Shown piece by piece: positions 3,432 through 27,692 of a stretch of 64,000 nucleotides of DNA. The notes beneath the pieces are model-generated. The model was not told the origin of the DNA. It made no database searches and saw only the letters and a program-made list of their open reading frames with translations. The stretch spans positions 26,808 through 90,807 of the forward strand of contig JAEOSK010000009.1 in assembly GCA_016840405.1 (NCBI GenBank), given 5' to 3'. A program made the translations under genes and the position numbers. The stretch's first letter is position 1, and every line of letters starts with the position of its first letter. Origin of the DNA: Candidatus Hermodarchaeum yapensis (lineage in GTDB: Archaea; Asgardarchaeota; Hermodarchaeia; Hermodarchaeales; Hermodarchaeaceae).

Positions 3432-3445
3432 TGTCATCCAAGTTC

Positions 3446-3766: not shown

Positions 3767-4971
3767 CTACTGCCACCAACTTTCTTTTTTTCAATCTGTA
3801 GTTCAAGTTCGCGTTCTAACACTACGGCTGGAATATCAGGAAGCCCAATTAGAGTGGTTTTTCCGCGTTGACCAATGCCAGAAAGTTTCGAAGATAGAAT
3901 TCCTAACCCGACAAGATCTTGAACATACGTCCATATTTGGGTATGAGCGCGTGGCGTTTGGCCATTCTCTTCACAGACAAGCCGATACCGCGCTTCTAGC
4001 TCACCAGTTTTCACGTAGGCATCTTCTGAAGGTTTTAACAATCTGCATACGGCGAGCAGCAGAAATTTCTGGTGAAGCGATAAATCCAAGAGAACCTCCC
4101 GTCGTATTTCAGGCGTGGTAAAAGCTTTAGCACTTCTCACGAACTCGGGTAAGATGCGAAGTACACCCTTCTCGTCCGCAGCTTTCCCTGCGTGATACAG
4201 AAGTGATAGAGCGTACCGTGCATCTCCTGATGTTCCTGCGATATCAGTGATTAGATCAATTGTGCTTTCAGGAACTGCTCCGTCGAGAACGGCTTCTTTT
4301 ACTCGATAGTTCAGGATATCTCGAAGCTGGAGGGAGTTATAACGATTGAATTGTATTAGGTTCTTCTGTAGTGTACTCCAAGTACTTGGATCAAGAATGT
4401 AGCCAAAAAGTGGACTACGGCTTATACCTATTAATGATACTCTTTGTTGCGCGTTTAATTGGTCATCCACAGTACGTGATAAAAGATAAAGAAGTTCTTC
4501 TCCACATCGTTTGAGAAATACACCGAGTTCATCTAGCGTAATGAGCAAATACAGGTTGTTTGTTTCAATAAACTCCAAAATTATTGAAAGTAGTTCTTGT
4601 GTTGAGAGCCCCCGGAGAGGAATACCTGTTTGAAGCGCCGAGAGTATTTTATTTAGAATCATATATTCGGTTCGTTCACGTCGCGCATTAACATGAATAT
4701 ACACTAAGTTGAATCCATGACCCTGAGCAATCTCTGTCAGTAGTTTTCCAAATAGCTTTGTTACAGAAGTCTTTCCCGAACCTGTATCACCGACGAGTAA
4801 TACCTTTTGTGAAACATGACCAGGTGCCTCGATTACCCCGCGAAACAGCTGGGTTAGCTTACGGAGATGCTCTTCACGATGGGGGAGGGTGGGAGGAACA
4901 TAATCAATGGAAAGCTTCGCTTCATTGATGAATACAGATGGGCGTTGCAATTCATGCCGAATGATCTCCAT
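3763..4971 (-). CDS. cdc6: Cdc6/Orc1 initiator paralogue (origin-distal)
   Basis: YVPPTLPHRE, GDTGSGKT, LDE, GDARYAL, C-terminal wH with GQRGKTT. Confidence 0.93.
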   Translation of the reverse strand: MEIIRHELQRPSVFINEAKLSIDYVPPTLPHREEHLRKLTQLFRGVIEAPGHVSQKVLLVGDTGSGKTSVTKLFGKLLTEIAQGHGFNLVYIHVNARRERTEYMILNKILSALQTGIPLRGLSTQELLSIILEFIETNNLYLLITLDELGVFLKRCGEELLYLLSRTVDDQLNAQQRVSLIGISRSPLFGYILDPSTWSTLQKNLIQFNRYNSLQLRDILNYRVKEAVLDGAVPESTIDLITDIAGTSGDARYALSLLYHAGKAADEKGVLRILPEFVRSAKAFTTPEIRREVLLDLSLHQKFLLLAVCRLLKPSEDAYVKTGELEARYRLVCEENGQTPRAHTQIWTYVQDLVGLGILSSKLSGIGQRGKTTLIGLPDIPAVVLERELELQIEKKKVGGSR

Positions 4972-5079
4972 CCTGTGTTCTCCATTCGCGGTGTTCTGAA
5001 CATACAGAAGGTGTAATAAAAGAGAAGACAGAGTTAGAGATAAGTGAACTCGAGTTTTTGGTAACTGTTGATGGTAGAT

Positions 5080-5619
5080 TCATTTTTCACGAATCGGTTC
5101 GGAAAAGACTCGTGTTTGTAGATATTCTCCTAATACTGTTAGGGCATAGCTTGCTAGACGGGAATTATCGCAGTGATCGCGTCTATGCCTCCGAAGCTGT
5201 GCCGCGTTAAGAATACGGTTGAGAGTTGTAAACACCTCACGCGAATCGTTCATGAGAAGGGAGATTCGAGCTTCAGGGACATCAAGTTGTTCATCTAGAG
5301 ACACACGACCACCCCAGCCTTCATCGATGAAGAGAATAAGAAAGATAAGAGTTGCGATTCCAGTTACTAGGTAGCGAATCCCTAGTGATGTTGTAGGAAA
5401 CGAAGAGCCGGTTACTTCGGCTATGAGGATAAGCAGTTCTGATCCCGCGAAGCTGATAGCCACGACGGCGAGACCAACTAGCGAAAATACAAGCCGAATA
5501 CGTCTACGAGCATAGACATCTCTGATTATTGTATCAATAAAAAGGAAATCGCCAACAAGAGGATATAGAATGAAGAGTAAAGTAGCACGCATTCCCGATA
5601 CGGTCTTGGATTGAGCCAT
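5080..5619 (-). CDS. Hypothetical membrane protein (about 3 TM segments)
   Basis: 179-aa ORF with hydrophobic N-terminal segments. Confidence 0.6.
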   Translation of the reverse strand: MAQSKTVSGMRATLLFILYPLVGDFLFIDTIIRDVYARRRIRLVFSLVGLAVVAISFAGSELLILIAEVTGSSFPTTSLGIRYLVTGIATLIFLILFIDEGWGGRVSLDEQLDVPEARISLLMNDSREVFTTLNRILNAAQLRRHRRDHCDNSRLASYALTVLGEYLQTRVFSEPIREK

Positions 5620-5728
5620 AGACTAGCCCCTTTCTCACCGATTTGCCAAACAAAGAGGATACGATGGGAAAGAATATATAGCGTTCGTATGGTCTAATTC
5701 ACGCCCACGATAATTCTTTGGTGAGTCG

Positions 5729-6151
5729 ATGTCTGACCTTTGGTGGCCAAAATTCATCCGTAAACCCCGTCTAAAACTACGCGTGCCCCAGTTCCGAGGA
5801 GTGCACATGCCTTCAAAATGGATATTTTTCGCCATTGTACTAGGAATCTATTACTTCATAGTGAGTGGTAGTATTTTCAGTTTATCATATATTCCCCCAC
5901 CTTTTGGCGGAACAGAAGAAGCGCTTAGGATCCTTTGGCCAGGACTTAGCCGTCAGTTCCTTCTCGAAGGAATCGTCGGAGGAATCATGTACCTAATCGG
6001 CTTCATTGGATTCTTCTTTATGTACCATAGTACAAGGCACATCTACCGACCACGCTACTCCCAAATGTTGCTAGCCATAGGCATTGTTCTAATTCTCGTA
6101 TCTTTCATTACTTCCCAATACATGGTTAATTACAAGATATTTGTAAGATAG
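5729..6151 (+). CDS. Oligosaccharyltransferase OSTC/DC2 (OST3/OST6 family) subunit homologue
   Basis: PRLKLRVP..HMPS, YYFIVSGSIF..PPPFG, QFLLEGIV, three TM helices; resembles recalled eukaryotic DC2. Confidence 0.82.
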   Translation: MSDLWWPKFIRKPRLKLRVPQFRGVHMPSKWIFFAIVLGIYYFIVSGSIFSLSYIPPPFGGTEEALRILWPGLSRQFLLEGIVGGIMYLIGFIGFFFMYHSTRHIYRPRYSQMLLAIGIVLILVSFITSQYMVNYKIFVR

Positions 6152-6166
6152 GCAGATATTGCCTAG

Positions 6167-6742
6167 TTACCAAGGGACCGTCTTCAACCGTAAAAGATAG
6201 CCTATGAAATTTGCTAATAAGTGGATAATCGGTGTTACAATTAACAGGAAAGCCACAAAAAGTAACGGCAAAGGGGTAATAAGCCACCCAAAAAGAATTG
6301 CCATAATAAGAAAATCCAATTGATCAAGTAAGGGTGCTGGGCGACCTCTTGAGATATTCATTCTTCGTTTAACAAATGAACCAATTAAATCTCCAATCAA
6401 GGCTCCTAAAGCTACCATCATCACAAGTGGAATAGGTAATAACACAATAGGAACAAATTCGGGTGGCAGAATTAAATATTGTACAATCAGAGCTTCCAAA
6501 AATGGTGCAGTAAATACTTGGAGAAGCCCCACGCACACTCCACTAATGAACCCAATAATAAAACCTTCCCAACTCTTCCCAGGACCGAGTATGAAACGCT
6601 CATCCTTGAGAACACGTCCTCCATCAATTGGATGGGGAGAAGCAAAAAATTTGGCAAACACCGCAAACCCATTCGCAACATACGCTGGGAGAATATACCA
6701 AAAACCTAGAAGAAGCAGAATTGGATGAGACATTGTAATCAT
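6167..6742 (-). CDS. carS: CDP-archaeol synthase
   Basis: LPAYVAN, PIDGG, GKSWEG, GDLIGSFVKRR, PLLDQLDF. Confidence 0.93.
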   Translation of the reverse strand: MITMSHPILLLLGFWYILPAYVANGFAVFAKFFASPHPIDGGRVLKDERFILGPGKSWEGFIIGFISGVCVGLLQVFTAPFLEALIVQYLILPPEFVPIVLLPIPLVMMVALGALIGDLIGSFVKRRMNISRGRPAPLLDQLDFLIMAILFGWLITPLPLLFVAFLLIVTPIIHLLANFIGYLLRLKTVPW

Positions 6743-6752
6743 CTTGTTGGAG

Positions 6753-7433
6753 TTACCTAAAGCCTGATTCCTGTAATTGCAATACTAGAGTTAATGGTTC
6801 CGAATCTTGTGACCTAAACAACTTAAATTCTCTGTAACCCTTCGATTCAGCTCTTGAGATTAGGAGAGAGTAGGTACTCCAATACGAAGTTATTGAATCC
6901 GCAACCGGTCGGAAATTGTTTTCTCCTTCGATATTTCCACGGACCTGATTAATTAGAATTACAGCAACTGATTGAGATATCGCAAAGTTGGCAATCATTC
7001 CCAACTGTTGATTCAGCTTTCGATTGAGGATGAGATTCTCTGAACTTTCACCAAGTTCCTTCCGGTAAAGAGAAACGATTGTATCAAAAATTACCAACCG
7101 AGTGCCAGACGGGATTAATGACTCAAACTGTGAAACCATTAGTGCTTGATTATTGAAACTAGTTGGCGAAACTACATTAATCAAAGGAGTAATCTTATTG
7201 AATTCAGATCCAGACAATTGATTCAACCGAATTATCGGAAATTTCCCCTCTGTGTTTACATAAAACACCTGAAATCCATTTTTTGCTGTGGCAATAGCAA
7301 ACTGCAGAGCCAAGGTTGTCTTTCCAACCCCACCTGGTCCATAAATCTGGAATATCTCAGTGGATCGTAGACCCCCACCCAAGGCCTTATCCAACTCAGG
7401 AGCTCCAGAAGGGAAATATCTCATAATTGGCAT
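6753..7433 (-). CDS. radB: RadB-like RecA-family ATPase
   Basis: LDKALGGGL, GPGGVGKTT, VIFD, INQV; lacks the RadA N-domain. Confidence 0.85.
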   Translation of the reverse strand: MPIMRYFPSGAPELDKALGGGLRSTEIFQIYGPGGVGKTTLALQFAIATAKNGFQVFYVNTEGKFPIIRLNQLSGSEFNKITPLINVVSPTSFNNQALMVSQFESLIPSGTRLVIFDTIVSLYRKELGESSENLILNRKLNQQLGMIANFAISQSVAVILINQVRGNIEGENNFRPVADSITSYWSTYSLLISRAESKGYREFKLFRSQDSEPLTLVLQLQESGFR

Positions 7434-7446
7434 CTCGGTTAATATT

Positions 7447-7482
7447 ACTTCAATGAATTCAATGAATTTGTTATTATTAATG
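7447..7482 (-). repeat. Phased 9-bp repeat array A (upstream of radB)
   Basis: + strand acttcaatg aattcaatg aatttgtta ttattaatg; units read on the - strand include CATTGAAGT and CATTGAATT. Confidence 0.7.
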
Positions 7483-7505
7483 ATTACATAATAGGATTAG
7501 TATTA

Positions 7506-9461
7506 TCATACCTCTGAATAAAAAGATTTCAACTTGTCGAAGAGTACTCCATCGCTATCGTTGGAGCTTTTCAAATTTTCGATAATCCAACTGGGAAGCA
7601 AGCGACTACAAGATGGTGTTGCATAACGATCATCAAGAAACACTATTGCCCCACGATCATCAAGTCGACGAACAGAGCGCCCAGCTGCTTGCGAAGCACT
7701 CCTCAGTGCTGGCAGCTGATAACCGTAAAGTCGCCCTTTACCTGGAAATTGTTGTTCGAAATAATCAATACGGGTGGCTTCTATTGGGTTCGGTCTGGGA
7801 TAAGGAACCCCTACAACGATTACTGTTTGCATTTCCCTTCCTGGATAATCTTCACCCTCACTGTTTCTCCCACTCAACACACCCAAGAGCGCTGCTCCTG
7901 CATCAGCCCTGGCTTTATAGGCTTGAATCATGGCATCATTTTCGTTTGATGAACTGCCTGGTTTCTCTACAAAGAGCTCTCGATTGATTTGTGAGGCAAG
8001 ACCCGAATTAAGTAATGATTGTAAAACTGAATATGAGGGAACAAAGATTCCAACATTGTGAGTGGTAGCCTGGCATACCTCAACGATACGACGGGTTATC
8101 TTTGTAAACATTCTTGGTGTTCTGTATTTCATTGCTGTTGTTACACCAAGACTAATTACAGGAAAGATCTGATTAGGACTAAAAGGAGACGGCAAATTCA
8201 ACACCTGTGTTCCCTTAGGTAATCCCACTAAGTCAATATGAGCACTTATTGGTTGCAATGTCCCTGAAAGGTGAACTGACGAATGACAAGCTTCAAAAAC
8301 GGTAACCGTTGCACACCGTGGGTCTAGCGCAATTAGCTCTAGACGAGCAGAGTTTCTCTTGGATTCATTTCTTACAATGAAATACGCGGAATCAGAACGG
8401 TGGAGAGAATTACTCCATTTGACAAAGAATCTGCCTAGTGAATAAATATAGCTTATTGGAGCCAAGCTTTCAGTCAAGAGCTTCTTTATCAGTTTGTCTC
8501 CAAGTTGTAACAACTTTGTAGAAAAAGTCTCTAAATCGTTAGACTTTATCGATTTTGAAATTTGAGTATTGAAAACTTTTGGATCTAATTTTATTTCTTG
8601 CTCGGAGTGTGTTTCAAGTAGTTTCTGGATAACATGATCTAGTTTGTTACAGAATGTTACGACTGAGTGTAAGTCGTAGCGTTTTGCTTCCCTCCTTGCT
8701 TGACGAATGGAGTTAAGAGAAAGTTTAGCTGATGCCAATTCGACAGCTATCCGGGGGAGGTTATGGGCTTCATCTATGATGAGTATTGTATTTGAAAATG
8801 GTCGGGCGAAGGCCTCTAAAAATGATTGATGGATTTGGGGATCAAAAATCTGAAAATAGGTAGTTGCAACGACGGTAACAAAGGGTAATATCCGCTTTGT
8901 AAGTTCATAGGGACAAACCCGTTCTTTGAGGCATTTTTGACGTAGTTCCGACCCAGTTAGAGGTACCTTATAAAATTGAGTGTAATAATTCCGATTTCTT
9001 TTTGTCTTCTTTAAGAGATTTTGATAAAATTCACATCGCCCTGCGAGTCTTAATTGAAAACAAATGAACATGGCCTGTTGGGCATTAGATGCATATCTTT
9101 GAATCAAGGGATTCAAACAGGAAACAGCTCTCCCCCGTAGCACAACTCCGTTCAATCCTGTTGATTCTGAGATAAGCCGTAGTTCATGCATAACCCGATC
9201 CAGTTGTTTGTGAGTACGGGCGATGTAGACAATGCCATAATTATTCGTTTTAAGGAGAGGAAGCACTCCTGACAATGCAGCGATTGTTTTACCAAACCCA
9301 TTCGCGGCTTCGACACACAAGTGCGTTCCGACTGCTGCATATTCTTGAATGGCTCTGATAAGGGTTAGTTGACCTGGCCGAGGAGTCGAATACGGAAAAT
9401 AGGATGAAGCTGCATTAGCACACATTTGCCAAGTCCTCACAGATGAATATGTATCTACCAT
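7506..9461 (-). CDS. xpd: XPD/Rad3-family Fe-S DNA helicase
   Basis: ANGFGKT, Cys cluster incl. CPY, DEAHN, SGTL, SEG.DYPG, QAAGRSVR. Confidence 0.9.
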   Translation of the reverse strand: MVDTYSSVRTWQMCANAASSYFPYSTPRPGQLTLIRAIQEYAAVGTHLCVEAANGFGKTIAALSGVLPLLKTNNYGIVYIARTHKQLDRVMHELRLISESTGLNGVVLRGRAVSCLNPLIQRYASNAQQAMFICFQLRLAGRCEFYQNLLKKTKRNRNYYTQFYKVPLTGSELRQKCLKERVCPYELTKRILPFVTVVATTYFQIFDPQIHQSFLEAFARPFSNTILIIDEAHNLPRIAVELASAKLSLNSIRQARREAKRYDLHSVVTFCNKLDHVIQKLLETHSEQEIKLDPKVFNTQISKSIKSNDLETFSTKLLQLGDKLIKKLLTESLAPISYIYSLGRFFVKWSNSLHRSDSAYFIVRNESKRNSARLELIALDPRCATVTVFEACHSSVHLSGTLQPISAHIDLVGLPKGTQVLNLPSPFSPNQIFPVISLGVTTAMKYRTPRMFTKITRRIVEVCQATTHNVGIFVPSYSVLQSLLNSGLASQINRELFVEKPGSSSNENDAMIQAYKARADAGAALLGVLSGRNSEGEDYPGREMQTVIVVGVPYPRPNPIEATRIDYFEQQFPGKGRLYGYQLPALRSASQAAGRSVRRLDDRGAIVFLDDRYATPSCSRLLPSWIIENLKSSNDSDGVLFDKLKSFYSEV

Positions 9462-9498
9462 AAAAACCTCATCACCTGTTCAGTTGTAATTTTTGATT

Positions 9499-9534
9499 CA
9501 TTATACTTATTGAAATTATTGAAATCAATAATTT
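9499..9534 (+). repeat. Phased 9-bp repeat array B
   Basis: cattatact tattgaaat tattgaaat caataattt, between divergent xpd and the HTH gene. Confidence 0.7.
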
Positions 9535-9625
9535 AGAAATTGGTGATAGCCGGGTGTTAACACCGACGCATTTTTGAGGTGCCATTTCAATTCGTATACA
9601 AAATTGTATCCATGGAGATAGCCAG

Positions 9626-10138
9626 TTGACCCAAAAAAACGAAGTAGAGGAGACGCGCTCTTGGTCTCGCAGAATGCAAGAAGACCCAGTTACCCAATTG
9701 CTAGCAGAAAATAGCCACCTAACAAATGTGCAACTTGAAACACTCATCATAGACTATTTGCTGGATGGTTTTGGAGAGAAACGTATTGACTATAAAACTA
9801 AAGCCACCTTACGAGATCCAAGACCTAGAACAAAGAAGCCTAAGGGGATTAGTCGGGGATCGTTCAACCGATCACTCGCCCAAGCCCGAAAGAACGTATC
9901 AAAGTCGATTTTTACATTAGTTCTCCTAGGTTATTTAGGAATTCTGGAAACTCCATCACTCATGCAATATCAAGACCTCTCCGAAACTATTCGAAGTTAT
10001 GCACGAGAATATGACAAGGTAGCCACAACTAAGGAAACTCCAACACCAACTCACCTCAGCTCCCTTAAGCAAACACAACACCGCATCATTGCCCTAATCG
10101 AAGCACTTGCCAAACCGCTTGCCCTGAAACCCGAATAA
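9626..10138 (+). CDS. Conserved archaeal putative HTH DNA-binding protein
   Basis: SHLTNVQLE...GISRGSFNRSLAQARKN; TTG start with GGAGA upstream. Confidence 0.65.
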   Translation: MTQKNEVEETRSWSRRMQEDPVTQLLAENSHLTNVQLETLIIDYLLDGFGEKRIDYKTKATLRDPRPRTKKPKGISRGSFNRSLAQARKNVSKSIFTLVLLGYLGILETPSLMQYQDLSETIRSYAREYDKVATTKETPTPTHLSSLKQTQHRIIALIEALAKPLALKPE

Positions 10139-10166
10139 GGAACTTTATTGAAAGCCAAAAAAATAG

Positions 10167-10766
10167 TTAGATTTCTGAAAATTTCATTTTTTCAGCCAAG
10201 ATTGTTGCGACTGTTTCTCCAGTATCAGTACACTGAATGACATCCTGATTCTGAAGCACAAGGCCACTCTTTTCTAAATTGGTTATCGCTTGATTGATAT
10301 AGTCAGCATCGAAACCGAAGTTAAGAAGTTCATCGACTTGAATAACTCCTCCGAACCTTTTCAACATAAATAGGACTGAAAGATAACCCAATCTAGAAAT
10401 GAGTTTACTAGCCATCAAAAGGTTGTCATCCTCAGCAACCGTCCAAATCGCTGAGGGCACCCAACCAATGAAGTTGTAATAATCGACTTCATCGAATTTG
10501 TGAAGCAATTCAAGTATAGGACCTTCTGTACCAGGTTGAACTCCTAATACGCTTTTTCCCAATTTAACAAACGGTAATTGATCCATAATGCCTGAATAAT
10601 GATAAGTACGGGTAACTTCTTTGCCACCTTTTAGCAGCTGTTTAACTTGTTGGGTGTATCCATATAATTCTCGGAAAAAACGGGTCTTTCTAGACTGGTT
10701 AGAGCCTTTAGGTTGCTTGAAATCAAATGAGACGATCCATAATCTCTTCGTGCCGCTTACTTGCAT
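10167..10766 (-). CDS. Cas2/VapD/PaaX-like ferredoxin-fold domain fused to wHTH
   Basis: WIVSFDF..SRKTRFFRELYG..KLGKSVL, then a C-terminal wHTH; start moved to ATG 10766 because GGAGG precedes it. Confidence 0.6.
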   Translation of the reverse strand: MQVSGTKRLWIVSFDFKQPKGSNQSRKTRFFRELYGYTQQVKQLLKGGKEVTRTYHYSGIMDQLPFVKLGKSVLGVQPGTEGPILELLHKFDEVDYYNFIGWVPSAIWTVAEDDNLLMASKLISRLGYLSVLFMLKRFGGVIQVDELLNFGFDADYINQAITNLEKSGLVLQNQDVIQCTDTGETVATILAEKMKFSEI

Positions 10767-10855
10767 CTTGCTTCCTCCGGAATTTGCCCAACAATTAAAC
10801 ATAAGGTAGTGGATTCCCTAAAAGTTAAACTAAAGAAAATTAACTGAAAGGAATG

Positions 10856-10886
10856 ACTTCAATAATTTCATTAATTTTATTGAAGT
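10856..10886. repeat. 9-bp repeat array C with inverted repeat
   Basis: acttcaata atttcatta attttattg; ACTTCAATAA-N11-TTATTGAAGT. Confidence 0.7.
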
Positions 10887-10904
10887 TATTTCTTTTTATG
10901 CTAT

Positions 10905-11273
10905 TTACGATTTGCGTTGAAGCTTTTCGAAGACCTCAGGAAAATCTGATTTTATCTTCGCCTCGAGTGCCTCTGCAATAAACCGCGATTTACCACCAAA
11001 CCCACCATATTTACCTTCTCCTGATTTTGTGGCAGCAATTGCCACATAATCCAAGGCGGCTTTGATCCACGCTGGAATGCTCGCACTTATAGTTCTGCGT
11101 CCTTCGTATTCACTTTCAATGCGTAAGCGTTTAAGACTTGAATCACCGACTCTTGATGATAATTCTTCTAACTCGATATCAGATGTTTTTTCTGCTGGTT
11201 TTTTTGATTCTTTTTTGGGTTTGGTTTCTTTTTCCTTCTTCAATCGTTCTCTTATCAGATCCGTAGCCGACAT
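10905..11273 (-). CDS. Ribbon-helix-helix protein with charged N-terminal tail
   Basis: RTISASIP (strand), AWIKAALDYVA (helix), GKSRFIAEALE (helix); K/E-rich N-terminus. Confidence 0.75.
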   Translation of the reverse strand: MSATDLIRERLKKEKETKPKKESKKPAEKTSDIELEELSSRVGDSSLKRLRIESEYEGRRTISASIPAWIKAALDYVAIAATKSGEGKYGGFGGKSRFIAEALEAKIKSDFPEVFEKLQRKS

Positions 11274-11285
11274 GATTTATTCACC

Positions 11286-12599
11286 TCACACAAATGTGGA
11301 ACCCTTGGTCCATAGTTCAGTAGCCTGAATACGTCCCGCTTCAGGACTGTAGATAAGGCCTTGTTTTTCAAATAGATCGAAATCCTCCAATACGTTTTCC
11401 CAAGAGCTATCATGAATTTGTAGCCAGTCTTCAATTTCATCAAGTGATCTTGCAACAGAAAGGAAACTCAGAAGCTCAGTTTGAAATGAAGAAAATTCTG
11501 CTCTTGCCCGTTTTACCTCTTTTTGTACAAACCGTTGAACGTAGTTGAAGTCTATTTGATATGCTGATAGAATATGATCTAGCGTGTAACCATCGTTTAC
11601 AAGAACTTCAGCACCACGAACTGCATCCTGAAGACAGCGTAATAATAGCTCAAGCATAATCCCGGGATTACCCCCAGAATAACTGAAAATACCCTCTAGT
11701 GCTTCAACTGTATAGGGATACAGTAACTCTTTCACTGTATCAGACTCATAATCTACACTATCCTCCGAATTCGATTGCAGTTTGTCCATTGCACCTTTGA
11801 GGTAGGCTATTCTCCAGAGCATGACTTTCATTGCACTTGATTTATTCATTCGACGCATATCGTAGATTTCAACGAACCGTCTTCGAATAGCAGACTTGGT
11901 TCCATGACCTAAGGTTTCTCCAACTGATGAGAGTATTTCAAGAGTCTTAATAGCACTCTCGCCAACACGGGTAATTACTGCCAAGGCTAGGACAACGTAT
12001 CGACGTCCATCTCTGGTTTTGTCGTTTACCATTCGTAATAGCGTATCTACAATACGTACACGATTATCAGGTCTTTGGCGTTCTAATTGTCGAAATTCAT
12101 CAATTAAGAAAACATATGAGGTTCCATTTTCTTCTGCATCCGTTCTTAATGCCAATAGTAAACGAGAAAGCCGTTTAGCAACTGAACCACTGCGTACGAC
12201 ACGAACACCAACTCTGTCAATTAGGAAATCACGCACAGTTTGTTCTCCAATGTTTGCATGAACCAGGTCATCAATTAAAGCATCAGCCGAACTAACACCT
12301 TCAAGTCTTATGGCCCGAATATTTGGTAGACGATTTAATGATTGCTGGATCATTTCTAAAAATGTGGTTTTTCCCGCGCCCAATGGACCAGATACGACCA
12401 CACTAGCTGTTTGATTACGCAGATAGTTAACGGCTCTCTTTATTGCTAGGGCTTCCCCTTCTGGAACTACATACAGCTCGTCAGAATCAATGCCAAATAG
12501 CTCAATTCTCTCTGTTTTGAATCCCCATTTTGAAAGCATTTGTTGATCGAATTTTTGTGTTCGTTCGACTAATCGATCCAGCTCACTCAGTTTCATCAC
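11286..12599 (-). CDS. AAA+ ATPase (ExeA/TnsC/Cdc6-like clade) with C-terminal wHTH
   Basis: Walker A GPLGAGKTT, Walker B FLIDE, AIRRRF, YSGGNPG, terminal wHTH. Confidence 0.8.
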   Translation of the reverse strand: MMKLSELDRLVERTQKFDQQMLSKWGFKTERIELFGIDSDELYVVPEGEALAIKRAVNYLRNQTASVVVSGPLGAGKTTFLEMIQQSLNRLPNIRAIRLEGVSSADALIDDLVHANIGEQTVRDFLIDRVGVRVVRSGSVAKRLSRLLLALRTDAEENGTSYVFLIDEFRQLERQRPDNRVRIVDTLLRMVNDKTRDGRRYVVLALAVITRVGESAIKTLEILSSVGETLGHGTKSAIRRRFVEIYDMRRMNKSSAMKVMLWRIAYLKGAMDKLQSNSEDSVDYESDTVKELLYPYTVEALEGIFSYSGGNPGIMLELLLRCLQDAVRGAEVLVNDGYTLDHILSAYQIDFNYVQRFVQKEVKRARAEFSSFQTELLSFLSVARSLDEIEDWLQIHDSSWENVLEDFDLFEKQGLIYSPEAGRIQATELWTKGSTFV

Positions 12600-12643
12600 G
12601 CCTCAGTTATTTTGGAGAAATGTGGGTTCTGTATTATAAGGAT

Positions 12644-12706
12644 TATTGATAGTATTAAAAACATAAAACTAGATAAATTTATTGAATTCATTGAAATTAT
12701 TACAAA
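12644..12706 (+). repeat. Phased 9-bp repeat array D (7 units, upstream of the ATPase)
   Basis: tattgatag tattaaaaa cataaaact agataaatt tattgaatt cattgaaat tattacaaa. Confidence 0.72.
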
Positions 12707-12714
12707 ATCATGTG

Positions 12715-13314
12715 CTAAATTCGTGTAAATGCTATAATATCAATCTTAGTGACGATTCCCACAGGACGTCCTTGATCCTCTATTAATAATGCCTCAACGC
12801 CTGATGCGATTTTGGAGAATGCAAGTTCTACACTCTCGTTAATATCAATTGATGGAAAAGGCTCTTCCATTATTTCATTGACTGATAATGAGAAGACTCT
12901 CTGTGAGTCCATGACCATCAATTTTCGAAGTATAGTACCTTCACTAATACACCCAACAGATTTGTTCTTTTTAATGACAGGAAGTTGTGATATGCCATGA
13001 CGCCTCATCAGTATTACTGCACTTCGTACTTTGTCATTGGGGCTGACCCCGATTAATTGTTGCATCTTTGTAGTTTGGCCTTTCCATTTTAACAGCTTTC
13101 GTAGACTTGGAGAAACCTGTTCTTGATCTTCGATTGCACTAAGAATTCGTTTAAGCGTAATAATGCTCGGATTCACTTGGCCGTTTTCTATTCGTGCAAC
13201 TAAAGACTGACTAATCCCAACTCGAGTAGCAAGTTCTTCTTGCGTGAGCCCAACTTTCTTTCGGAGTTCTTGCAGTTCCTTTGGCGTTGGGACACGAAAT
13301 TCACTCATCATCAA
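12715..13314 (-). CDS. XRE-HTH + CBS domain regulator
   Basis: GLTQEELATRVGISQSLVARIE; ISQLPV; GIVTKID. Confidence 0.9.
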   Translation of the reverse strand: MMMSEFRVPTPKELQELRKKVGLTQEELATRVGISQSLVARIENGQVNPSIITLKRILSAIEDQEQVSPSLRKLLKWKGQTTKMQQLIGVSPNDKVRSAVILMRRHGISQLPVIKKNKSVGCISEGTILRKLMVMDSQRVFSLSVNEIMEEPFPSIDINESVELAFSKIASGVEALLIEDQGRPVGIVTKIDIIAFTRI

Positions 13315-13400
13315 ACACTAACCGAAAGCATATACTACTTGATGATAACTCCAAAAGAATTAATACTTCGCTTTCGTCGGTTCAAAGGGAGTTGACGCCG

Positions 13401-15725
13401 ATGACTAATATTCAACAAGCAGAAATTCGTGTTGTCGGCGTTGTACAGGGAATTGGCTTCCGTCCATTTATCTATGCCCAAGCCACACAACGTAATTTGT
13501 TAGGATACGTTTTGAATACTGGAAATTCTGCTGTTTTGATAGTTGTAGAAGGCGATAAAAAGAAAATTATTGAATTCATTGAATCCATTGAAAAAGATAA
13601 ACCATATCTTGCCGTAATTGACAGCATCCGCACAATATGGGGAACCCCAACCGGGAAATATACAAACTTTCAGATTCGAATTTCGAAGGACGAACAAAAG
13701 GCGGGCGGTTCAGTAATTCCCGCTGATATTGCCGTTTGCGAAGATTGTATTAGAGACATGGCTAGTCCGAAGTCGAGACATTATCAATATCCAATGACTT
13801 GTTGTGCTATTTGTGGTCCACGCTACACAACAATTACCAACACACCCTATGACCGAGAACGAACAACTATGAACGAGTTCCCCCTCTGCAAAGATTGCGC
13901 AACAGAGTTCGACAATCCATTAGACCGCCGATACAACGCCCAAACCATTTGTTGCCCAATCTGTGGTCCCAAATTTTCACTATTAGAATCTGGTGGAGTA
14001 TCCGTTATTGTCGATGACGTTTTCAAAGAAACGGTGAAGCTTCTGAACGAAGGAGCCATTATTGCCGTAAAAGGCTTAGGGGGTATACATCTTGCAGTTA
14101 GAGCTAATCTTGAAGAACCAACTCAACGACTTCGACAATTACGGAAAAAACCCAATAAACCCCTGGCCATAATGTCAACAAATCTCAAAGATATTCGACA
14201 GTATGCAAAAGTAAATCAAGATGAAGAAAAGCTCTTGACCTCTTGGCGTCGACCGATAGTAGTCTTGGATCAAAAATCTCCTTTCCCACTATCCCCAGCA
14301 CTAGCACCTGGATTGAATACAATTGGCGTAATGCTTCCTTATTCAGGAATCTATTTGCGATTATTTGAAGGCCTTGATGATCTCGCATTAGTGATGACAA
14401 GCGCAAATCCTGTGGGATTACCGACCCTCATCCATGCAACCACCTTCCAAGAACAATTCATGAAAATGGCTGACTACTTCCTCACTCATGATCGTACTAT
14501 ATACCAACGATGTGATGACTCGGTTGTCATTCCAATTTATGACCAAGCACTTATTGTCCGTCGTTCAAGAGGCTATACTCCTGAACCTATTGATACTGCC
14601 GATATTGGACCTCCAATTCTCGCTCTTGGAGCAATGGAAAAAAACACAGGAGCAATTTACCACAATAAACGAATCTATCTTACACAGCACATTGGCGATA
14701 TTGATACAGTAGAGACAATGCAGTTCCTTCAAGAAAGCCTCACACATCTCCAACAACTTCTTCGAGTAAATACCTTTGATGCTATTGCCTGCGATTTACA
14801 TCCTGATTTTCTCACAACTCAATATGGCGAAAAGATATCTGATGAACACCAAGTTCCCCTTATCCGGGTACAACACCACCACGCACACCTTGCGGCACTA
14901 TTAGCTGATCACCAACTCAAAGCGGATGAAGAAATCGTCGCTATCTGTTGCGATGGCGCAGGGTACGGTCCTGATGATACAATTTGGGGAGGCGAAATCC
15001 TCGTAGGTAACGCACAAAAGTACAAACGTGTAGGTCATCTGGAACAACAGCTCATGCCCGGTGGAGATCTTGCTGCTCGTTACCCGCTCCGTATGCTCAT
15101 CGGTATTCTGTCAAGGCATTATTCACAGGATCAATTATATGATCATTTCAAAGAAATTGCCACAAACACCTTACCACAAGGCACATCAGAATTGAGAATA
15201 GCACTCAAACAAGCGTACCAGAAAATCAATGCTCCGTTGACATCAAGTACAGGAAGAGTACTAGATTCACTTGCTGCACTCTTCCAAGTATGCTATACAC
15301 GTTCATACGAAGGTGAGCCTGCCATCCGATTCGAGTCTTTTGCAAATTCGGGCTCAGCCAACTCCAAAATTAAATTACAGATTCCCAAGAACAGACAAGG
15401 TAACTTAACAATCTTAGATACTAGCAGCTTCATTAAGCAAATTATGGACTTGCAATCCGACTTTAAGACTCCGGATCTGGCATATGCTGCACATCGCGCG
15501 CTTGGGTATGCATTGGCTGACACTGCTATTCAAGCAGCACAAAAACAAGGAATATCGAAAATCGGGTTTTCCGGAGGAGTTGCATACAACAAGATTCTCA
15601 CAAGAACTATACGAACAAATATTGAAGACCAAGGTCTTACGTTCCTAATGCACAACAAAGTTCCACCTGGTGACGCAGGAACATCTGTGGGTCAGGCTCT
15701 TGTAGCACGATCCATGATACAATAA
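13401..15725 (+). CDS. hypF: Hydrogenase maturation carbamoyltransferase HypF
   Basis: GVVQGIGFRPF, CxxC zinc fingers, KGLGGIHL, QHHHAH, PPGDAG; ATG 13401 preferred. Confidence 0.95.
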   Translation: MTNIQQAEIRVVGVVQGIGFRPFIYAQATQRNLLGYVLNTGNSAVLIVVEGDKKKIIEFIESIEKDKPYLAVIDSIRTIWGTPTGKYTNFQIRISKDEQKAGGSVIPADIAVCEDCIRDMASPKSRHYQYPMTCCAICGPRYTTITNTPYDRERTTMNEFPLCKDCATEFDNPLDRRYNAQTICCPICGPKFSLLESGGVSVIVDDVFKETVKLLNEGAIIAVKGLGGIHLAVRANLEEPTQRLRQLRKKPNKPLAIMSTNLKDIRQYAKVNQDEEKLLTSWRRPIVVLDQKSPFPLSPALAPGLNTIGVMLPYSGIYLRLFEGLDDLALVMTSANPVGLPTLIHATTFQEQFMKMADYFLTHDRTIYQRCDDSVVIPIYDQALIVRRSRGYTPEPIDTADIGPPILALGAMEKNTGAIYHNKRIYLTQHIGDIDTVETMQFLQESLTHLQQLLRVNTFDAIACDLHPDFLTTQYGEKISDEHQVPLIRVQHHHAHLAALLADHQLKADEEIVAICCDGAGYGPDDTIWGGEILVGNAQKYKRVGHLEQQLMPGGDLAARYPLRMLIGILSRHYSQDQLYDHFKEIATNTLPQGTSELRIALKQAYQKINAPLTSSTGRVLDSLAALFQVCYTRSYEGEPAIRFESFANSGSANSKIKLQIPKNRQGNLTILDTSSFIKQIMDLQSDFKTPDLAYAAHRALGYALADTAIQAAQKQGISKIGFSGGVAYNKILTRTIRTNIEDQGLTFLMHNKVPPGDAGTSVGQALVARSMIQ
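13568..13594 (+). repeat. 9-bp repeat array E inside hypF
   Basis: tattgaatt cattgaatc cattgaaaa. Confidence 0.5.
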
Positions 15726-15768
15726 GCATATTCAACAGTAGTTCGCTATTTTTCCACATTCTGAAACT

Positions 15769-15795
15769 CATTTATTTCATTGAATTCATTAAGTT
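15769..15795 (+). repeat. 9-bp repeat array F abutting the first ORB
   Basis: catttattt cattgaatt cattaagtt. Confidence 0.65.
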
Positions 15796-15806
15796 CCAGT
15801 GGAAAT
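15793..15806 (+). promoter_or_regulatory. ORB element 1 (no G-string)
   Basis: GTTCCAGTGGAAAT. Confidence 0.75.
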
Positions 15807-15861
15807 TATCCACAACTAATATAAATAACCGTAAATTATCTAGACGTAGAGTTGTGGTATT

Positions 15862-16155
15862 ATGGCTGCTACCCGAACCACCCAACGAACACCCCACAGT
15901 ACTCAAAAAACGAAACAACGTACCCGAACAACTACCCGTCCACCTGAGCCAGGCGACGTCAAAAGTCATATTACTAGCCTACTCCGAGATCAAGGTGCCT
16001 TAACGCGGGGAGAGATTACCGTCAGGACAGGGATCCCAAGAACAACTGTCTATGATACTCTAATGAATTTACTGATTTCCGGAACTGTTGAGAAGTATGT
16101 TGAACGAAACGGTAAGCGTGGTAGGCCCTCTGTATACTATCAACTGGTAGCTTAG
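15862..16155 (+). CDS. Small TrmB-like wHTH protein
   Basis: LTRGEITVRTGIPRTTVYDTL...KRGRPSVYY. Confidence 0.8.
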   Translation: MAATRTTQRTPHSTQKTKQRTRTTTRPPEPGDVKSHITSLLRDQGALTRGEITVRTGIPRTTVYDTLMNLLISGTVEKYVERNGKRGRPSVYYQLVA

Positions 16156-16168
16156 GAGACTAGGTATA

Positions 16169-16189
16169 CCCCTTAATTTCCACTGGAAC
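16169..16189 (-). promoter_or_regulatory. ORB element 2
   Basis: - strand GTTCCAGTGGAAATTAAGGGG. Confidence 0.88.
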
Positions 16190-16373
16190 TGCTTTTTAGT
16201 CGGATTTTTTGTTACCCTTTCAAATAAGTGGAAAATGCGCAAAAACAACTTCTATACTATTAAAGAAAACGTGTTAGAGAAGGTAAACTATTAATATAAC
16301 AATAGTAGAAAACTACTGGGGAAGATTCTTCGAATTATATAAAAACAAGACCAAACTTTCTTTGTTCTTCGAC

Positions 16374-16393
16374 TTCCAGTGGAAACAAAGGGG
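16374..16393 (+). promoter_or_regulatory. ORB element 3
   Basis: TTCCAGTGGAAACAAAGGGG. Confidence 0.9.
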
Positions 16394-16528
16394 AGTGACA
16401 ATTGATTCTATTTTTCCATTGATCTCTGAGGCCTTGTTACTTTGCCAATAGTAGATTAATTTTTTAAAGTTTATAACTATAGTTCATAATTTTTTTCCTA
16501 TGAAATAAAAAGTTTGAAAGAAACTGTT

Positions 16529-16999
16529 TTAGACTTTTGTGGCCAGGATAGCTGCAATCTCTTCTGTTAAATCTTCGATTTTAACTCGATACTCGCGTTG
16601 GGCAGCTGATCCACGACGTGTAAGAGTGCCATTGTCATGCATTCTTTTAAGGTATTGTGAGGCGGTGGCTAGTCGTAGGGGTGGGTGAAAGGTTCTTTCA
16701 TAGAGTTCTTGGATATCTTTGGAAGTGAACCATCCGTGACGACAGTGGCGAAGAGTGATATAGCGGACTTTTTGAAACACGGTCCAGGAATCCACATCAG
16801 CTAGGGGTTGTATCTCAGTTGTGGGTTCGTGGGCTGGAACCTCGGTGCCGGATTGACTGAGGGCTGTGACCAGAGATTCGGTGATGGAAGAGGGTAATCC
16901 GTCTGTAAAAGTGATAGTTACGTCACAGGTTTTTCCTTCGATGGTAAGTCCTTCGATGGTAATCTTTTGTTTACGTTTTTTCATGGGAGGCTCACCCAC
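16529..16999 (-). CDS. Origin-embedded protein with C-terminal wHTH
   Basis: GWFTSKDIQELYE..LATASQYLKRM..GTLTRRG. Confidence 0.75.
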   Translation of the reverse strand: MGEPPMKKRKQKITIEGLTIEGKTCDVTITFTDGLPSSITESLVTALSQSGTEVPAHEPTTEIQPLADVDSWTVFQKVRYITLRHCRHGWFTSKDIQELYERTFHPPLRLATASQYLKRMHDNGTLTRRGSAAQREYRVKIEDLTEEIAAILATKV

Positions 17000-17289
17000 T
17001 GGTGACTAGCTGGCTCTCCATGTCCCCACTAGAGAGGCGTGTTCACAGTGATAAAAGTGTGACGGTGTGAAGAGTGGTTGTATTGTAGCACTGATTATTT
17101 GCATGGTGCTGCTTACTTCTGTTGTATAATAAGCTAAAGCGTTCTTCTGCTTGTTCTGGTGTGTTATGAAAAATAAGGTGTCTCCGGTGTTCTTTTTACC
17201 TTTCAAGGATTTTCTCCATAGCCCGAGTGTGTTCACAGATTCTTCACGTGTTGATAATAATTTCTAAGAATCTAAGGCTTTATTGGATA

Positions 17290-17310
17290 GTTCCAGTGGA
17301 AACAAAGGGG
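17290..17310 (+). promoter_or_regulatory. ORB element 4
   Basis: GTTCCAGTGGAAACAAAGGGG. Confidence 0.9.
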
Positions 17311-17394
17311 TGAGTCTTTGTTGATTTGAAAATATACTAAATTTGGCTGTTTTTAAAAGAAAAAAGTGTTCTAAATCAGTTTATGATATTGAGA

Positions 17395-17422
17395 GTTCAC
17401 AATTAACGCGCCAATTGTGAAC
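17395..17422. promoter_or_regulatory. Inverted repeat upstream of cdc6
   Basis: GTTCACAATT-N8-AATTGTGAAC. Confidence 0.5.
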
Positions 17423-17555
17423 AAATTAAACCTTGTTTATTGAAGAAGATAGTTAATAAGAGTTATTTCTGCGAAACCCTAATATTGGAGGTGCGTGCAC
17501 TTCCAAAAGAAACGCTAGTATTTCCTATGGGAGCATTCTGGAGGAAATCTATTAA

Positions 17556-18791
17556 ATGGACGACCCACGGCCTTTGGACAGGATTTTTGAACGTTTTAGT
17601 ACTGGCCCAACTCTTATTCGTGATCGTAAAGTTCTTTGGCATTCATATGTTCCAGATGACCTTCCACATCGTGAGGAACAGATTACACAAATCGGAAGCA
17701 TATTAGCGACGGGGTTGAAAGGGAGTCGTCCATCAAACGTTTTTGTTTATGGTAAACCGGGAACTGGAAAAACAGCAGTGACTCGGTATGTTCTTCGGGA
17801 ACTAACTACTAAGTTTGGTGAACTACAGTTACCCTTCAAAGCTGTGTATTTGAATTGCCGGAATGTGGATACAGATTATCGTGTATTGGCGCGCATCTGT
17901 GCGGAGTTGGGTCAGAAAGTTCCGTTTACAGGGCTGCCAACTGATGAAGTTCATTCACGCTTGGTCGAGTTGCTAGAAAGCCAAGATCTCTTAACCATTA
18001 TTGTACTCGATGAAATCGACCGTTTAGTTTTGAAGAGCGGAGATGACACGCTCTATAAGTTGACTCGAATTAATTATGATCTTACGAGTGCTCGTGTCAG
18101 TTTGATTGGAATATCCAACGATCTTCGCTTCCCTGAGTATCTTGACCCTCGGGTGTTGAGTAGCTTAAGTGAGGAGAAGGTCATTTTTCATCCTTACACC
18201 GCATTACAGCTACAAGATATTCTTCGGCGTCGAAGTTCTCATGGACTGAAAAATGGTATTTTAGAAGAACCAGGAGTAATCAACCTATGTGCTGCTTTGG
18301 CTGCACGTGAAGAAGGTGACGCACGACGGGCTCTTGATCTCTTTCGTGTAGCAGTAGAAATTGCTGAACGTGAGGGAAGTAAAGAGGTAAAAGTTGACCA
18401 TGTTGAAAAGGCACGTTTAAGCATTGAACGTGATACTGTTCTTGAAGTACTAAGGACATTACCCGTGCAACAGAAACTTGTTCTTTATGCGGTGTATGTA
18501 TTAGAACGTCATAAACATCCACATCCAGTTACAGGAGAGGTGCAAGATGTGTACGGTGAATTTTGTTCGCAGTTGGGTATGGATCCTTTAACCCAGCGTC
18601 GGGTTAGCGATCTCATCAATGATCTTGATGCCATTGGAGTAGTTAATGCTAAGGTTGTAAGTAAAGGACGATATGGACGAACCAAAATTATCCGGTTGAG
18701 TGTCCCGAAAACAATGATTGCAGATGTATTAGAACGAGATAGTCGAATTAAGGCGCTATCAAGTTATGTTCCAGCAACCCCGGGTAAATAG
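17556..18791 (+). CDS. cdc6: Cdc6/Orc1-1 initiator (origin-adjacent)
   Basis: YVPDDLPHRE, GKPGTGKT, LDEID, GDARRAL, SKGRYGRT. Confidence 0.96.
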   Translation: MDDPRPLDRIFERFSTGPTLIRDRKVLWHSYVPDDLPHREEQITQIGSILATGLKGSRPSNVFVYGKPGTGKTAVTRYVLRELTTKFGELQLPFKAVYLNCRNVDTDYRVLARICAELGQKVPFTGLPTDEVHSRLVELLESQDLLTIIVLDEIDRLVLKSGDDTLYKLTRINYDLTSARVSLIGISNDLRFPEYLDPRVLSSLSEEKVIFHPYTALQLQDILRRRSSHGLKNGILEEPGVINLCAALAAREEGDARRALDLFRVAVEIAEREGSKEVKVDHVEKARLSIERDTVLEVLRTLPVQQKLVLYAVYVLERHKHPHPVTGEVQDVYGEFCSQLGMDPLTQRRVSDLINDLDAIGVVNAKVVSKGRYGRTKIIRLSVPKTMIADVLERDSRIKALSSYVPATPGK

Positions 18792-18813
18792 AACCGCGTT
18801 AAAGGTTGTCAGT

Positions 18814-19392
18814 ATGTTTAGTGTACCACGTAATCCAGTTGGCCTTGTGGATTATGCACTTCGTGCTCTCGGTAAAGATCATGTACCAATTCAACAGCTA
18901 GTATTCTTTCTTTCCTTTGATATCCGGCAGATGGCTCCTTCGCAGGCACTTAAACTTATTAAACGCCTTCAATCTGAAGGGCAGATAAGTATCGAAAACG
19001 GTTTGGTAAAAGTGTCTCATGAAATGGTGGTTGATACCGAAATCCCCACTCAGACAGCTTCAACAAATTTGGGTGAGCATCTACGATTATTTGTTAGCTC
19101 ATCCCGTTTATCTCGTGCAGTGGGAATGAACAATCAAGCCATTGAATTCATCCGCGTGTCTCAAAATCCATTGAAAGTGGAGGCCACGGTTCATGGATCT
19201 CAAGATTATATTCTCATCCTTGATGAAGCTAGCCGACGGATAGCTCATAATTGCCCTGACTGGCGAAAAGTCAGTTTGCTTCATCGATTCTGCAAACACG
19301 TGGCGAAATTATTCTTGATTTTAGAAAAGGAAGAATCTATTCGACTTCTCCAGTCGTTGCAGGTGGAATCGTGGGAATTCGAACAACTCTAA
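18814..19392 (+). CDS. SWIM-type zinc-finger protein
   Basis: HNCPDW...FCKH; start uncertain (18766 or 18814). Confidence 0.7.
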   Translation: MFSVPRNPVGLVDYALRALGKDHVPIQQLVFFLSFDIRQMAPSQALKLIKRLQSEGQISIENGLVKVSHEMVVDTEIPTQTASTNLGEHLRLFVSSSRLSRAVGMNNQAIEFIRVSQNPLKVEATVHGSQDYILILDEASRRIAHNCPDWRKVSLLHRFCKHVAKLFLILEKEESIRLLQSLQVESWEFEQL

Positions 19393-27595: not shown

Positions 27596-27692
27596 GCGGA
27601 GTTGGCGGAGCGGTAACGCGCTGGACTCGAGATGACCGAGTCATCCAGTGACCTTCGTGGTCGCAAGGGTTCAAATCCCTTACTCCGCGCCA
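27596..27692 (+). tRNA. tRNA-Ser(CGA) with 11-nt intron (27632-27642)
   Basis: Long variable arm; CTGGA-CTCGAG|intron|A-TCCAG; encoded CCA. Confidence 0.92.

Follow-up and report, generated by a model that had tools for sequence, protein, structure and literature searches.

Arrays of 9-bp boxes, a predicted ORC/Cdc6-fold ATPase and a small probable ribbon-helix-helix protein beside the replication origin of an Asgard archaeon: a possible partition-like module

What is the role of a two-gene operon, encoding an AAA+ ATPase and a small probable ribbon-helix-helix (RHH) DNA-binding protein, that lies beside the replication origin (oriC) of an Asgard archaeon? The operon was found in a stretch of 64,000 nucleotides (hereafter the window) of Candidatus Hermodarchaeum yapensis (assembly GCA_016840405.1, contig JAEOSK010000009.1, positions 26,808 to 90,807), a metagenome-assembled genome (MAG) of 2.7 Mb in 77 contigs that is 86% complete. 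A sequence-only reading of this DNA had proposed a segregation or origin-control system with a non-ParA motor; its observations were confirmed and its interpretation is partly supported. The operon is embedded in a zone of short box arrays ending at the origin, and we tentatively propose that these elements form an origin-flank nucleoprotein module, which shares the layout of type Ib partition systems, uses a different kind of ATPase and may organise the origin flank in a partition-like manner. None of the papers retrieved contains a description of an AAA+/RHH/array module at an Asgard origin. The elements are listed below in window coordinates.

11286-12599, (-) strand: AAA+ ATPase, 437 aa, with Walker A GPLGAGKTT and Walker B LIDEF
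10905-11273, (-) strand: small probable RHH DNA-binding protein, 122 aa
12715-13314, (-) strand: helix-turn-helix (HTH_3) and CBS-pair regulator (HTH-CBS), a conserved neighbour upstream of the ATPase
15794-17302: oriC, with origin recognition box (ORB) cores at 15794 (+), 16177 (-), 16374 (+) and 17291 (+)
17556-18791, (+) strand: Cdc6-1, the origin-adjacent initiator gene
3763-4971, (-) strand: Cdc6 paralogue (Cdc6-2), in the first 20 kb of the window
7449-7466: box array in the RadB-like/XPD spacer, where the array zone has its left edge
9506-9523: box array in the spacer between the XPD gene and a gene for a 170-aa protein
10858-10884: array of three boxes, directly 3' of the small gene and 5' of a 211-aa gene
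12642-12650: single box beside a TATA-like element, 5' of the ATPase gene
12678-12695: array of two boxes 5' of the ATPase gene, in the ATPase/HTH-CBS spacer
13566-13592: array of three boxes inside the 5' part of hypF, ~250 bp 5' of the HTH-CBS start
15767-15793: box array in the HypF/TrmB spacer, the final box abutting ORB1 with zero gap, right edge of the zone

The ATPase gene is followed by the small gene as the sequence-only reading had described, and the 12-bp gap between them contains a Shine-Dalgarno-like GGTGA motif. The ATPase start may be the ATG at 12596, since public homologues, which carry the labels Candidatus Hermodarchaeota, Thorarchaeota or Promethearchaeota, have 436 aa. The repeat arrays reported before and after the pair both exist (12678-12695 and 10858-10884). 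Their assignment to the pair was borne out in that they bracket it in this genus and in Ranarchaeia, but they are not private to it, being part of a zone of six or seven arrays (7449-15793) that ends exactly at ORB1. The origin itself is considered real because four perfect ORB cores (TTCCAGTGGAAA; 0.67 expected) coincide with the turn of the cumulative GC skew, which has its minimum at ~16000. ORB1 is located 3.2 kb from the ATPase gene start, in agreement with the distance of about 3 kb given earlier.

The array unit is a palindromic 9-bp box (TTCAWTRAW) that occurs in 2-4 head-to-tail copies, and the inverted repeat I2 (10847-10895) corresponds to such boxes read as a hairpin-like repeat. 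When a site was defined as two consecutive boxes matching at 17 or more of 18 positions, nine sites were found in the whole genome, six of which fall within the 8.35 kb between 7449 and 15793 compared with ~0.03 expected by proportion; the window contains six sites, whereas 100 dinucleotide shuffles gave 0.04 on average. Across all 14 genomes of the genus, which as kin are not independent observations, most genome-wide matches lie within ~10 kb of the ATPase gene, and a reversed control pattern gave no matches. Four further species contain 7-8 arrays at orthologous places, including those abutting ORB1 and inside hypF, and the boxes appear as phylogenetic footprints in otherwise diverged but alignable spacers of 13 species. 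Where the array lies inside hypF, the encoded protein reads I-I-E-F-I-E-S-I-E, a series of I-E-x repeats kept across the genus, and the boxes are maintained while synonymous positions vary; the three-residue repeat of the protein seems to be imposed by that of the DNA. One perfect two-box site was identified outside the origin zone (G000:C63:11339-11356; L020:4040-4057), in the divergent spacer between an operon for a 274-aa protein and a Ras-like GTPase and a GNAT acetyltransferase gene, and at least four further species of the genus carry the identical 18-mer, on other contigs.

Tight linkage of the ATPase and small genes was observed directly in three lineages, with gaps of 9-32 bp and ATPases diverged to 26% identity. 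Every one of the 14 genomes of the genus contains the pair. The Ranarchaeia MAGs encode an ATPase with 53-56% identity, and in all four loci a small-protein homologue is encoded 9-32 bp behind it. Co-conservation of the arrays is likewise a direct observation, as the Ranarchaeia carry arrays of the same box directly 5' of the ATPase gene, directly 3' of the small gene and in neighbouring spacers (3-7 sites per locus at the same threshold, compared with 0.01-0.06 expected from shuffles). In two of these loci, the array 3' of the small gene lies between convergent genes and therefore cannot be a promoter element. Three of the four Ranarchaeia loci contain Cdc6 and an ORB within ~2 kb, next to a homologue of a 156-aa protein encoded within oriC, and HTH-CBS is the upstream neighbour in three of four. 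The third lineage is represented by a single 1.2-kb metagenomic contig, which encodes an ATPase with 26% identity over the full length and then an open reading frame (ORF) starting M-S-S-I-A-D-L-I-K-K. Adjacency to the origin can thus be read directly from the contigs wherever context is visible, except for one short contig. Conservation next to cdc6 and oriC, which the sequence-only reading had put forward as a check, was found to this extent, but the distribution of the pair is patchy above the genus level.

In four MAGs of the sister genus, neither the ATPase nor the small protein, HTH-CBS or arrays were found. This apparent absence is weak evidence because three of the four MAGs also lack a match to Cdc6-1, and their origin regions are probably unassembled. 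One sister-genus contig that extends from the hypF 3' end to Cdc6-1 contains no array and a degenerate ORB1, and a second encodes a distant HypF in a different context.

The small protein consists of an N-terminal helix (S-A-T-D-L-I-R-E-R), a K/E-rich disordered tail, a strand (R-T-I-S-A-S-I-P), a helix, a loop, the segment G-F-G-G-K-S and a second helix. Its core (strand, helix, loop, G-x-S turn, helix) matches the RHH pattern, with an inter-helix loop of 11-16 residues in the genus, and the T-I-S-A-S-I-P segment resembles I-T-V-S-I-P, which we take to be the corresponding sequence of MetJ. Language-model (Atlas) leads were sub-threshold (0.84-0.87) and comprised CB_ParB_C, MetJ, RHH_1 and RHH_4, with the MetJ cluster at 0.86; the genome encodes four RHH_1 proteins. 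A PDB profile search with the small protein at E up to 10 retrieved neither an RHH nor a SegB chain, and its botulinum-toxin rows were disregarded as low-complexity matches to the charged tail. The protein is thus probably an RHH protein as the sequence-only reading had labelled it, a label that holds as a sequence pattern with weak language-model leads and not as a profile match.

The N-terminal S-x-x-D-L-I-K/R helix is present in all three lineages in which the gene is linked to the ATPase. Homologues from genomes without the ATPase lack this helix (one keeps a degraded form) and retain the invariant core R-x-T-I-S-A-S-I-P ... G-F-G-G-K-S-x-F. The D-L-I-K/R motif thus tracks the ATPase, as expected for an interaction peptide, in a comparison that covers few independent lineages. 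A complex prediction for the ATPase and the small protein scored 0.19 (mark 0.32), which counts neither for nor against contact. By analogy with known RHH proteins, we consider it somewhat probable that the small protein, and not HTH-CBS, binds the arrays; it is favoured because half-sites 5 bp apart are ill suited to a two-fold HTH dimer. Conservation of the recognition elements fails to separate the two candidates, as both are near-invariant, and HTH-CBS is a possible extra component or alternative array binder.

The ATPase has generic Pfam matches only (AAA, AAA_22 and AAA_16). The nearest Pfam family is ATPase_2 (PF01637), to which the match of 32.4 bits falls below the gathering cut-off of 33.2. 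In its AlphaFold2 (AF2) model (pLDDT 72.7), on which the fold assignment is based, an AAA+ core with a helical insert, a lid and a C-terminal winged helix are predicted, the architecture of Orc1/Cdc6 proteins and eukaryotic origin recognition complex (ORC) subunits. The best Foldseek matches of the model were ORC4, Orc1 and Cdc6 (E 2.5e-7 to 1e-4). Comparison by VIA gave Z scores of 14.2 over 305 residues for Aeropyrum pernix ORC2 (1w5s), 13.3 for PABY2304 (2qen), 13.1 for Cdc6, 12.8 for Sulfolobus solfataricus Orc1 (2qby), 11.9 for SSO1545 (2fna), 11.6 for 1fnn, ~11 for TnsC and 9.6 for MuB, and residues 363-437 resemble a MarR/PadR-like winged helix (Z ~9).

Three assignments of the ATPase were rejected. 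Sequence-level membership in Cdc6 was ruled out: no match to the Cdc6_lid (PF22703) or Cdc6_C (PF09079) profiles was obtained at E up to 1, alignment with Asgard Cdc6 reached an hhalign probability of 20.7% over 107 columns of the Walker A-B core only, and all ATPase members have an invariant SGGNPG without arginine where Cdc6 has the sensor-2 GDAR. The ATPase is also not a ParA, ParF or SegA protein, as its Walker A (GPLGAGKTT) is classical and not the deviant KGGxxGK[ST], and no ParA/MinD fold was present among the listed Foldseek and VIA matches; the earlier claim that the protein is AAA+ and not ParA was therefore upheld. Membership in PF01637 was not accepted, as the match is under the curated cut-off, although the fold is similar to 2qen and 2fna. 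These two proteins share the full-length arrangement of AAA+ domain and winged helix, but neither has an assigned function or is known to be associated with an origin, with repeat arrays or with an RHH partner. The model leads us to infer that the ATPase acts as an oligomerising ATP switch bound to DNA, of the ORC/Cdc6, PF01637 and TnsC/MuB type, and not as a translocase, and the term 'motor' used for it earlier was abandoned.

Conservation of the ATPase within the genus approaches that of both Cdc6 proteins (81-84% identity, compared with 91-93% for Cdc6-1 and 84-87% for Cdc6-2) and is far above that of its neighbours. The large subunit of replication factor C (RFC-L) and XPD share 62-67% and RadB 54-63%, and RFC-L, XPD, RadB and HypF overall span 54-72%. 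The gene is single-copy and has a fixed chromosomal position. Together with the two Cdc6 genes, it brings the number of initiator-fold genes within 15 kb to three. The Cdc6 paralogues are 12.6 kb apart and flank the array zone, and the ORBs adjoin Cdc6-1 only.

The fold and the position of the ATPase raise the question of whether it controls replication initiation, as a third, highly derived Orc/Cdc6-like protein that acts with Cdc6-1 at ORB1 as co-initiator, loader or negative regulator; the arrays would then serve as accessory sites of an initiator or regulator, with the small protein acting as an origin-specific regulator. Consistent with this, the closest structures are archaeal Orc2/Orc1, Cdc6 and eukaryotic ORC4, lid and winged helix included (VIA Z 11.6-14.2 for the Orc1/Cdc6 and ORC group), ORC4 is also the best PDB profile match (E 0.011), and the gene is origin-adjacent and comparable to Cdc6 in conservation. 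An array abuts ORB1 in the genus, others lie 15-84 bp from an outer ORB in two other lineages, including ones without the ATPase, and TTCAWTGAA, the box, reads like a shortened version of the ORB core (TTCCAGTGGAA). However, the relation to Cdc6 is remote and confined to the Walker A-B core, no Cdc6 lid or C-terminal profile is matched and the sensor-2 arginine is absent. Unlike Orc1/Cdc6, the ATPase has a small-protein partner and a very narrow distribution, most Asgard genomes searched being without it. Initiation control also leaves the arrays located up to 8 kb from the origin unexplained, and we regard it as unlikely.

The layout of the locus is matched more broadly by type Ib partition systems (ParF-ParG of TP228, delta-omega of pSM19035). 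As in these, the NTPase gene comes first and that of a small protein second, here a putative DNA-binding dimer whose N-terminal tail is flexible, and short tandem repeats 5' of the operon could here serve as both operator and centromere; arrays at several neighbouring promoters recall the omega heptads. In contrast to type Ib systems, the ATPase combines a classical Walker A with a predicted ORC/Cdc6 fold, the sites occupy 8 kb of the chromosome next to oriC, and the small protein is a probable RHH protein with putative contacts. MetJ binds 8-bp metboxes and omega 7-bp heptads as RHH proteins. The tandem palindromic metboxes, each suiting one RHH dimer, provide a parallel for boxes of 8-9 bp, whereas MetJ itself shows no detectable homology to the small protein, which has the 11-16-residue inter-helix loop, and the role here is not methionine regulation.

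SegAB of Sulfolobales is also an archaeal chromosomal operon for an ATPase and a small site-specific DNA-binding protein, and SegB binds a triple 7-bp repeat just 5' of segAB and contacts SegA through its N-terminal region (PMC12139799), so that both the short-repeat array 5' of an operon and the proposed N-terminal contact have counterparts there. It differs in that SegA is ParA-like and in that segS ([AGNGTNN]x3) is 166 kb away from an origin in S. acidocaldarius, while the six to eight arrays described here abut oriC; the PDB profile search described above detected no similarity between SegB and the small protein. The transposition regulators TnsC, MuB and TniB, of the same AAA_22-like group (VIA Z 9.6-11.2), act on DNA as oligomeric, ATP-dependent switches that a sequence-specific adaptor protein recruits. 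Unlike these, the ATPase is associated with neither a transposase nor transposon ends, occupies a fixed chromosomal place and has a C-terminal winged helix.

These parallels suggest how a partition-like module could work. By analogy with MetJ and omega, one dimer of the small protein would bind each 9-bp box, with dimers side by side and cooperative along the array, and would thereby autoregulate the operon and decorate the zone. Its N-terminal D-L-I-K/R helix, carried on the flexible charged tail, may contact the ATPase, as suggested by ParG, omega, SegB and the distribution of the motif. In its ATP state, the ATPase would assemble on the decorated DNA as a switch of the ORC/Cdc6 or TnsC/MuB type, with its own predicted winged helix. 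The resulting complex could mark the origin-proximal flank so that newly replicated origins are held, positioned or separated, and may also influence Cdc6 at ORB1. Three outputs are conceivable: partition-like marking of the origin flank, control of Cdc6 at ORB1 and transcription control of origin-neighbour genes. Partition and transcription control can coexist, as in omega and ParG, and segregation, origin control and local transcription control are indistinguishable by computation. We rank partition-like organising first, as a plausible reading that falls short of probable, followed by a transcriptional circuit and then by initiation control.

Several observations weigh against partition-like organising. 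We know of no AAA+ ATPase that drives segregation, and the predicted fold suggests a switch or loader and not a force generator. None of 25 members of the small-protein family matched an RHH Pfam family at E up to 10, and the monomer model is of low confidence (pLDDT 59, the tail also low) and gave no meaningful Foldseek match. Other conserved DNA-binding neighbours, namely HTH-CBS and the 170-aa, TrmB-like and 156-aa proteins, could bind the arrays. The ATPase family is very narrow, which is odd for a basic function, and small-protein homologues and arrays also occur in Asgard genomes that lack the ATPase. At these loci, the small gene is found within 2-4 kb of Cdc6 and ORBs, its neighbours being HTH-CBS, a gene of TrmB-like type and counterparts of the 156-aa and 170-aa genes, and the arrays are fewer (0-4 per locus), the clearest being located 5' of the small gene and 15 bp from an outer ORB. 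The ATPase is thus not part of the module in every lineage, whether gained or lost. Finally, three arrays precede genes that are conserved in both the genus and Ranarchaeia (the 170-aa gene, the HTH-CBS gene and the ATPase operon), which a plain regulatory circuit would explain.

In such a local circuit, the RHH-like protein or HTH-CBS would act as repressor or activator at about seven neighbouring promoters, including that of its own operon, with the ATPase as nucleotide-dependent co-regulator and the proximity to the origin as inherited gene order. Most arrays indeed lie 15-150 bp 5' of a gene start, and the placement of the clearest arrays before the small gene itself in ATPase-less lineages points in the same direction. 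RHH proteins are mostly transcription regulators. Archaeal RHH regulators of the cell cycle are reported as well (PMC9976878, PMC7439475). A circuit of this kind would not, however, account for the concentration of nearly all genome sites in one contiguous 8-kb zone without a dispersed regulon. Some arrays are unlike promoter elements, being located between convergent genes in the two Ranarchaeia loci, inside hypF or against ORB1, the remaining flanked genes vary by lineage (RadB, XPD and HypF in the genus, POR and Alba in Ranarchaeia), and ATPase conservation near the level of Cdc6 would be unusual for an accessory regulator. We consider a purely local circuit rather doubtful, though likelier than initiation control.

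The narrow distribution that counts against a partition-like module was evident in a profile search of 1.84 billion representative proteins with the ATPase, which yielded three clusters below E 1e-10, and in a scan of 185,579 species genomes, one for each species, which recovered 14 loci, all of this genus. Together with the combination of ATPase, RHH protein and repeats, which is a typical plasmid layout, this patchiness could indicate that the replication-partition module of a plasmid or virus was captured with the origin and persists as a relic or in domesticated form; archaeal origins and initiators can reportedly be acquired as modules. Such an origin is nevertheless very improbable. No relatives were detected in IMG/VR and no family in PHROG or PADLOC, and no transposase or integrase is encoded among the Pfam-scanned neighbours (295 to 19392), as the sequence-only reading had stated. 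The single-copy gene is fixed in the chromosome under strong constraint, and the divergence of the ATPase between the genus and Ranarchaeia (53-56% identity) parallels that of Cdc6-1 (45-52%). Of the features that would have spoken against the system in relatives, neither lack of linkage nor mobility was found, the pair being linked in three lineages and missing from the mobile-element and defence collections, while patchiness was, with the small protein and arrays occurring elsewhere without the ATPase.

A defence or toxin-antitoxin-like pair, in which an AAA+ effector is combined with an RHH antitoxin or regulator, was likewise considered, as RHH antitoxins are common, STAND/AAA+ ATPases are frequent in defence and weak matches of the ATPase to mad8 (E 1.4e-4, 19.5 bits) and nSTAND were obtained. 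These matches are at the P-loop level only, PADLOC contains no real family for the ATPase and gave no match for the small protein, and dedicated multi-site cis arrays have no role in such systems. Defence islands behave in the opposite manner to this pair, which is single-copy and fixed near the origin and whose ATPase is much better conserved than the genes around it, and we have very little confidence in this interpretation.

Partition-like organising of the origin flank thus remains the reading that we place first. Its stronger form, that some Asgard archaea handle their origin with a hitherto unrecognised class of partition-like machinery, in which an RHH adaptor brings an AAA+ ATPase of ORC/Cdc6 fold to a 'centromere' of several arrays next to oriC, is speculative, and we would not expect it to hold in full. 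If true, it would add a fourth class of NTPase for DNA segregation or origin positioning, derived from the fold that eukaryotes use in ORC, and could demonstrate that the ORC/Cdc6 fold is employed on DNA flanking the origin for a purpose other than initiation. Chromosome organisation and separation are largely unknown in archaea, especially in Asgard archaea, and to our knowledge SegAB, with its ParA-like ATPase, is the only archaeal segregation system described. Even a local regulatory circuit would introduce two protein families and an operator type that are new, along with a conserved group of uncharacterised origin-neighbour genes.

Further genes of the window that are referred to above or below are the following.

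10167-10802, (-) strand: 211-aa ORF, separated from the small gene by a 102-bp spacer
9626-10138, (+) strand: 170-aa protein of no known family, near the origin in all lineages examined
16529-16999, (-) strand: 156-aa protein without a Pfam family, between ORB3 and ORB4
1-2196: RFC small subunit gene with an intein (Intein_splicing match over ORF residues 6-389)
5729-6151, (+) strand: stand-alone OST3/OST6-family membrane protein (Pfam E 8e-8)

The gene downstream of the pair had been described as Cas2-like, a label that found no support. Its product is probably 199 aa long, with a start at 10766, and no match to Cas2 was found in Pfam, NCBIfam, PADLOC or Atlas; only weak matches to winged-helix models were obtained, in its C-terminal part (DUF4364, E 0.002; a PADLOC WH model, E 8e-4). 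We treat it as a neighbour outside the core, because it is genus-restricted, fast-evolving (47-56% conserved) and missing from Ranarchaeia. It has its own array and a promoter-like element.

Two proteins without known family recur at the origins. The 170-aa protein contains a conserved S-R-G-A-F ... L-L-G-Y motif, its gene usually has a box array upstream and is placed between ORBs in one genome, and homologues are encoded in related loci at L016:7373-7882, L018:6748-7272, L019:1224-1751, L049:11446-11817 and L023:6222-6722. The gene for the 156-aa protein is interleaved, together with a TrmB-like 97-aa gene, with the ORB cores of oriC. Homologues (30% identity, E 2e-20) are encoded divergently beside Cdc6 in several Asgard lineages (L019:4647-5105, and loci L016, L018, L023, L025 and L049), and the protein is a candidate origin-associated factor.

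An origin-proximal block is common to Asgard loci L016-L019, L023 and L025, consisting of the ribosomal L3-L4-L23-L2 operon, Cdc6, an Arf/Ras-like GTPase, POR, an aminotransferase, Alba and glycine-cleavage genes, and the origin neighbourhood of these lineages is unusually stable. The first 20 kb of the window also encode RFC-L, CDP-archaeol synthase, the RadB-like protein, the XPD-like helicase and HypF, and the OST3/OST6-family protein is a eukaryote-like feature. Positions 58001-59000 are a composition outlier (GC 0.50, GC skew -0.42, AT skew +0.26) without an Rfam match at the gathering threshold. A tRNA-Leu(GAG) was called at 27596-27692, and its length of 97 nt suggests an intron or a long variable arm.

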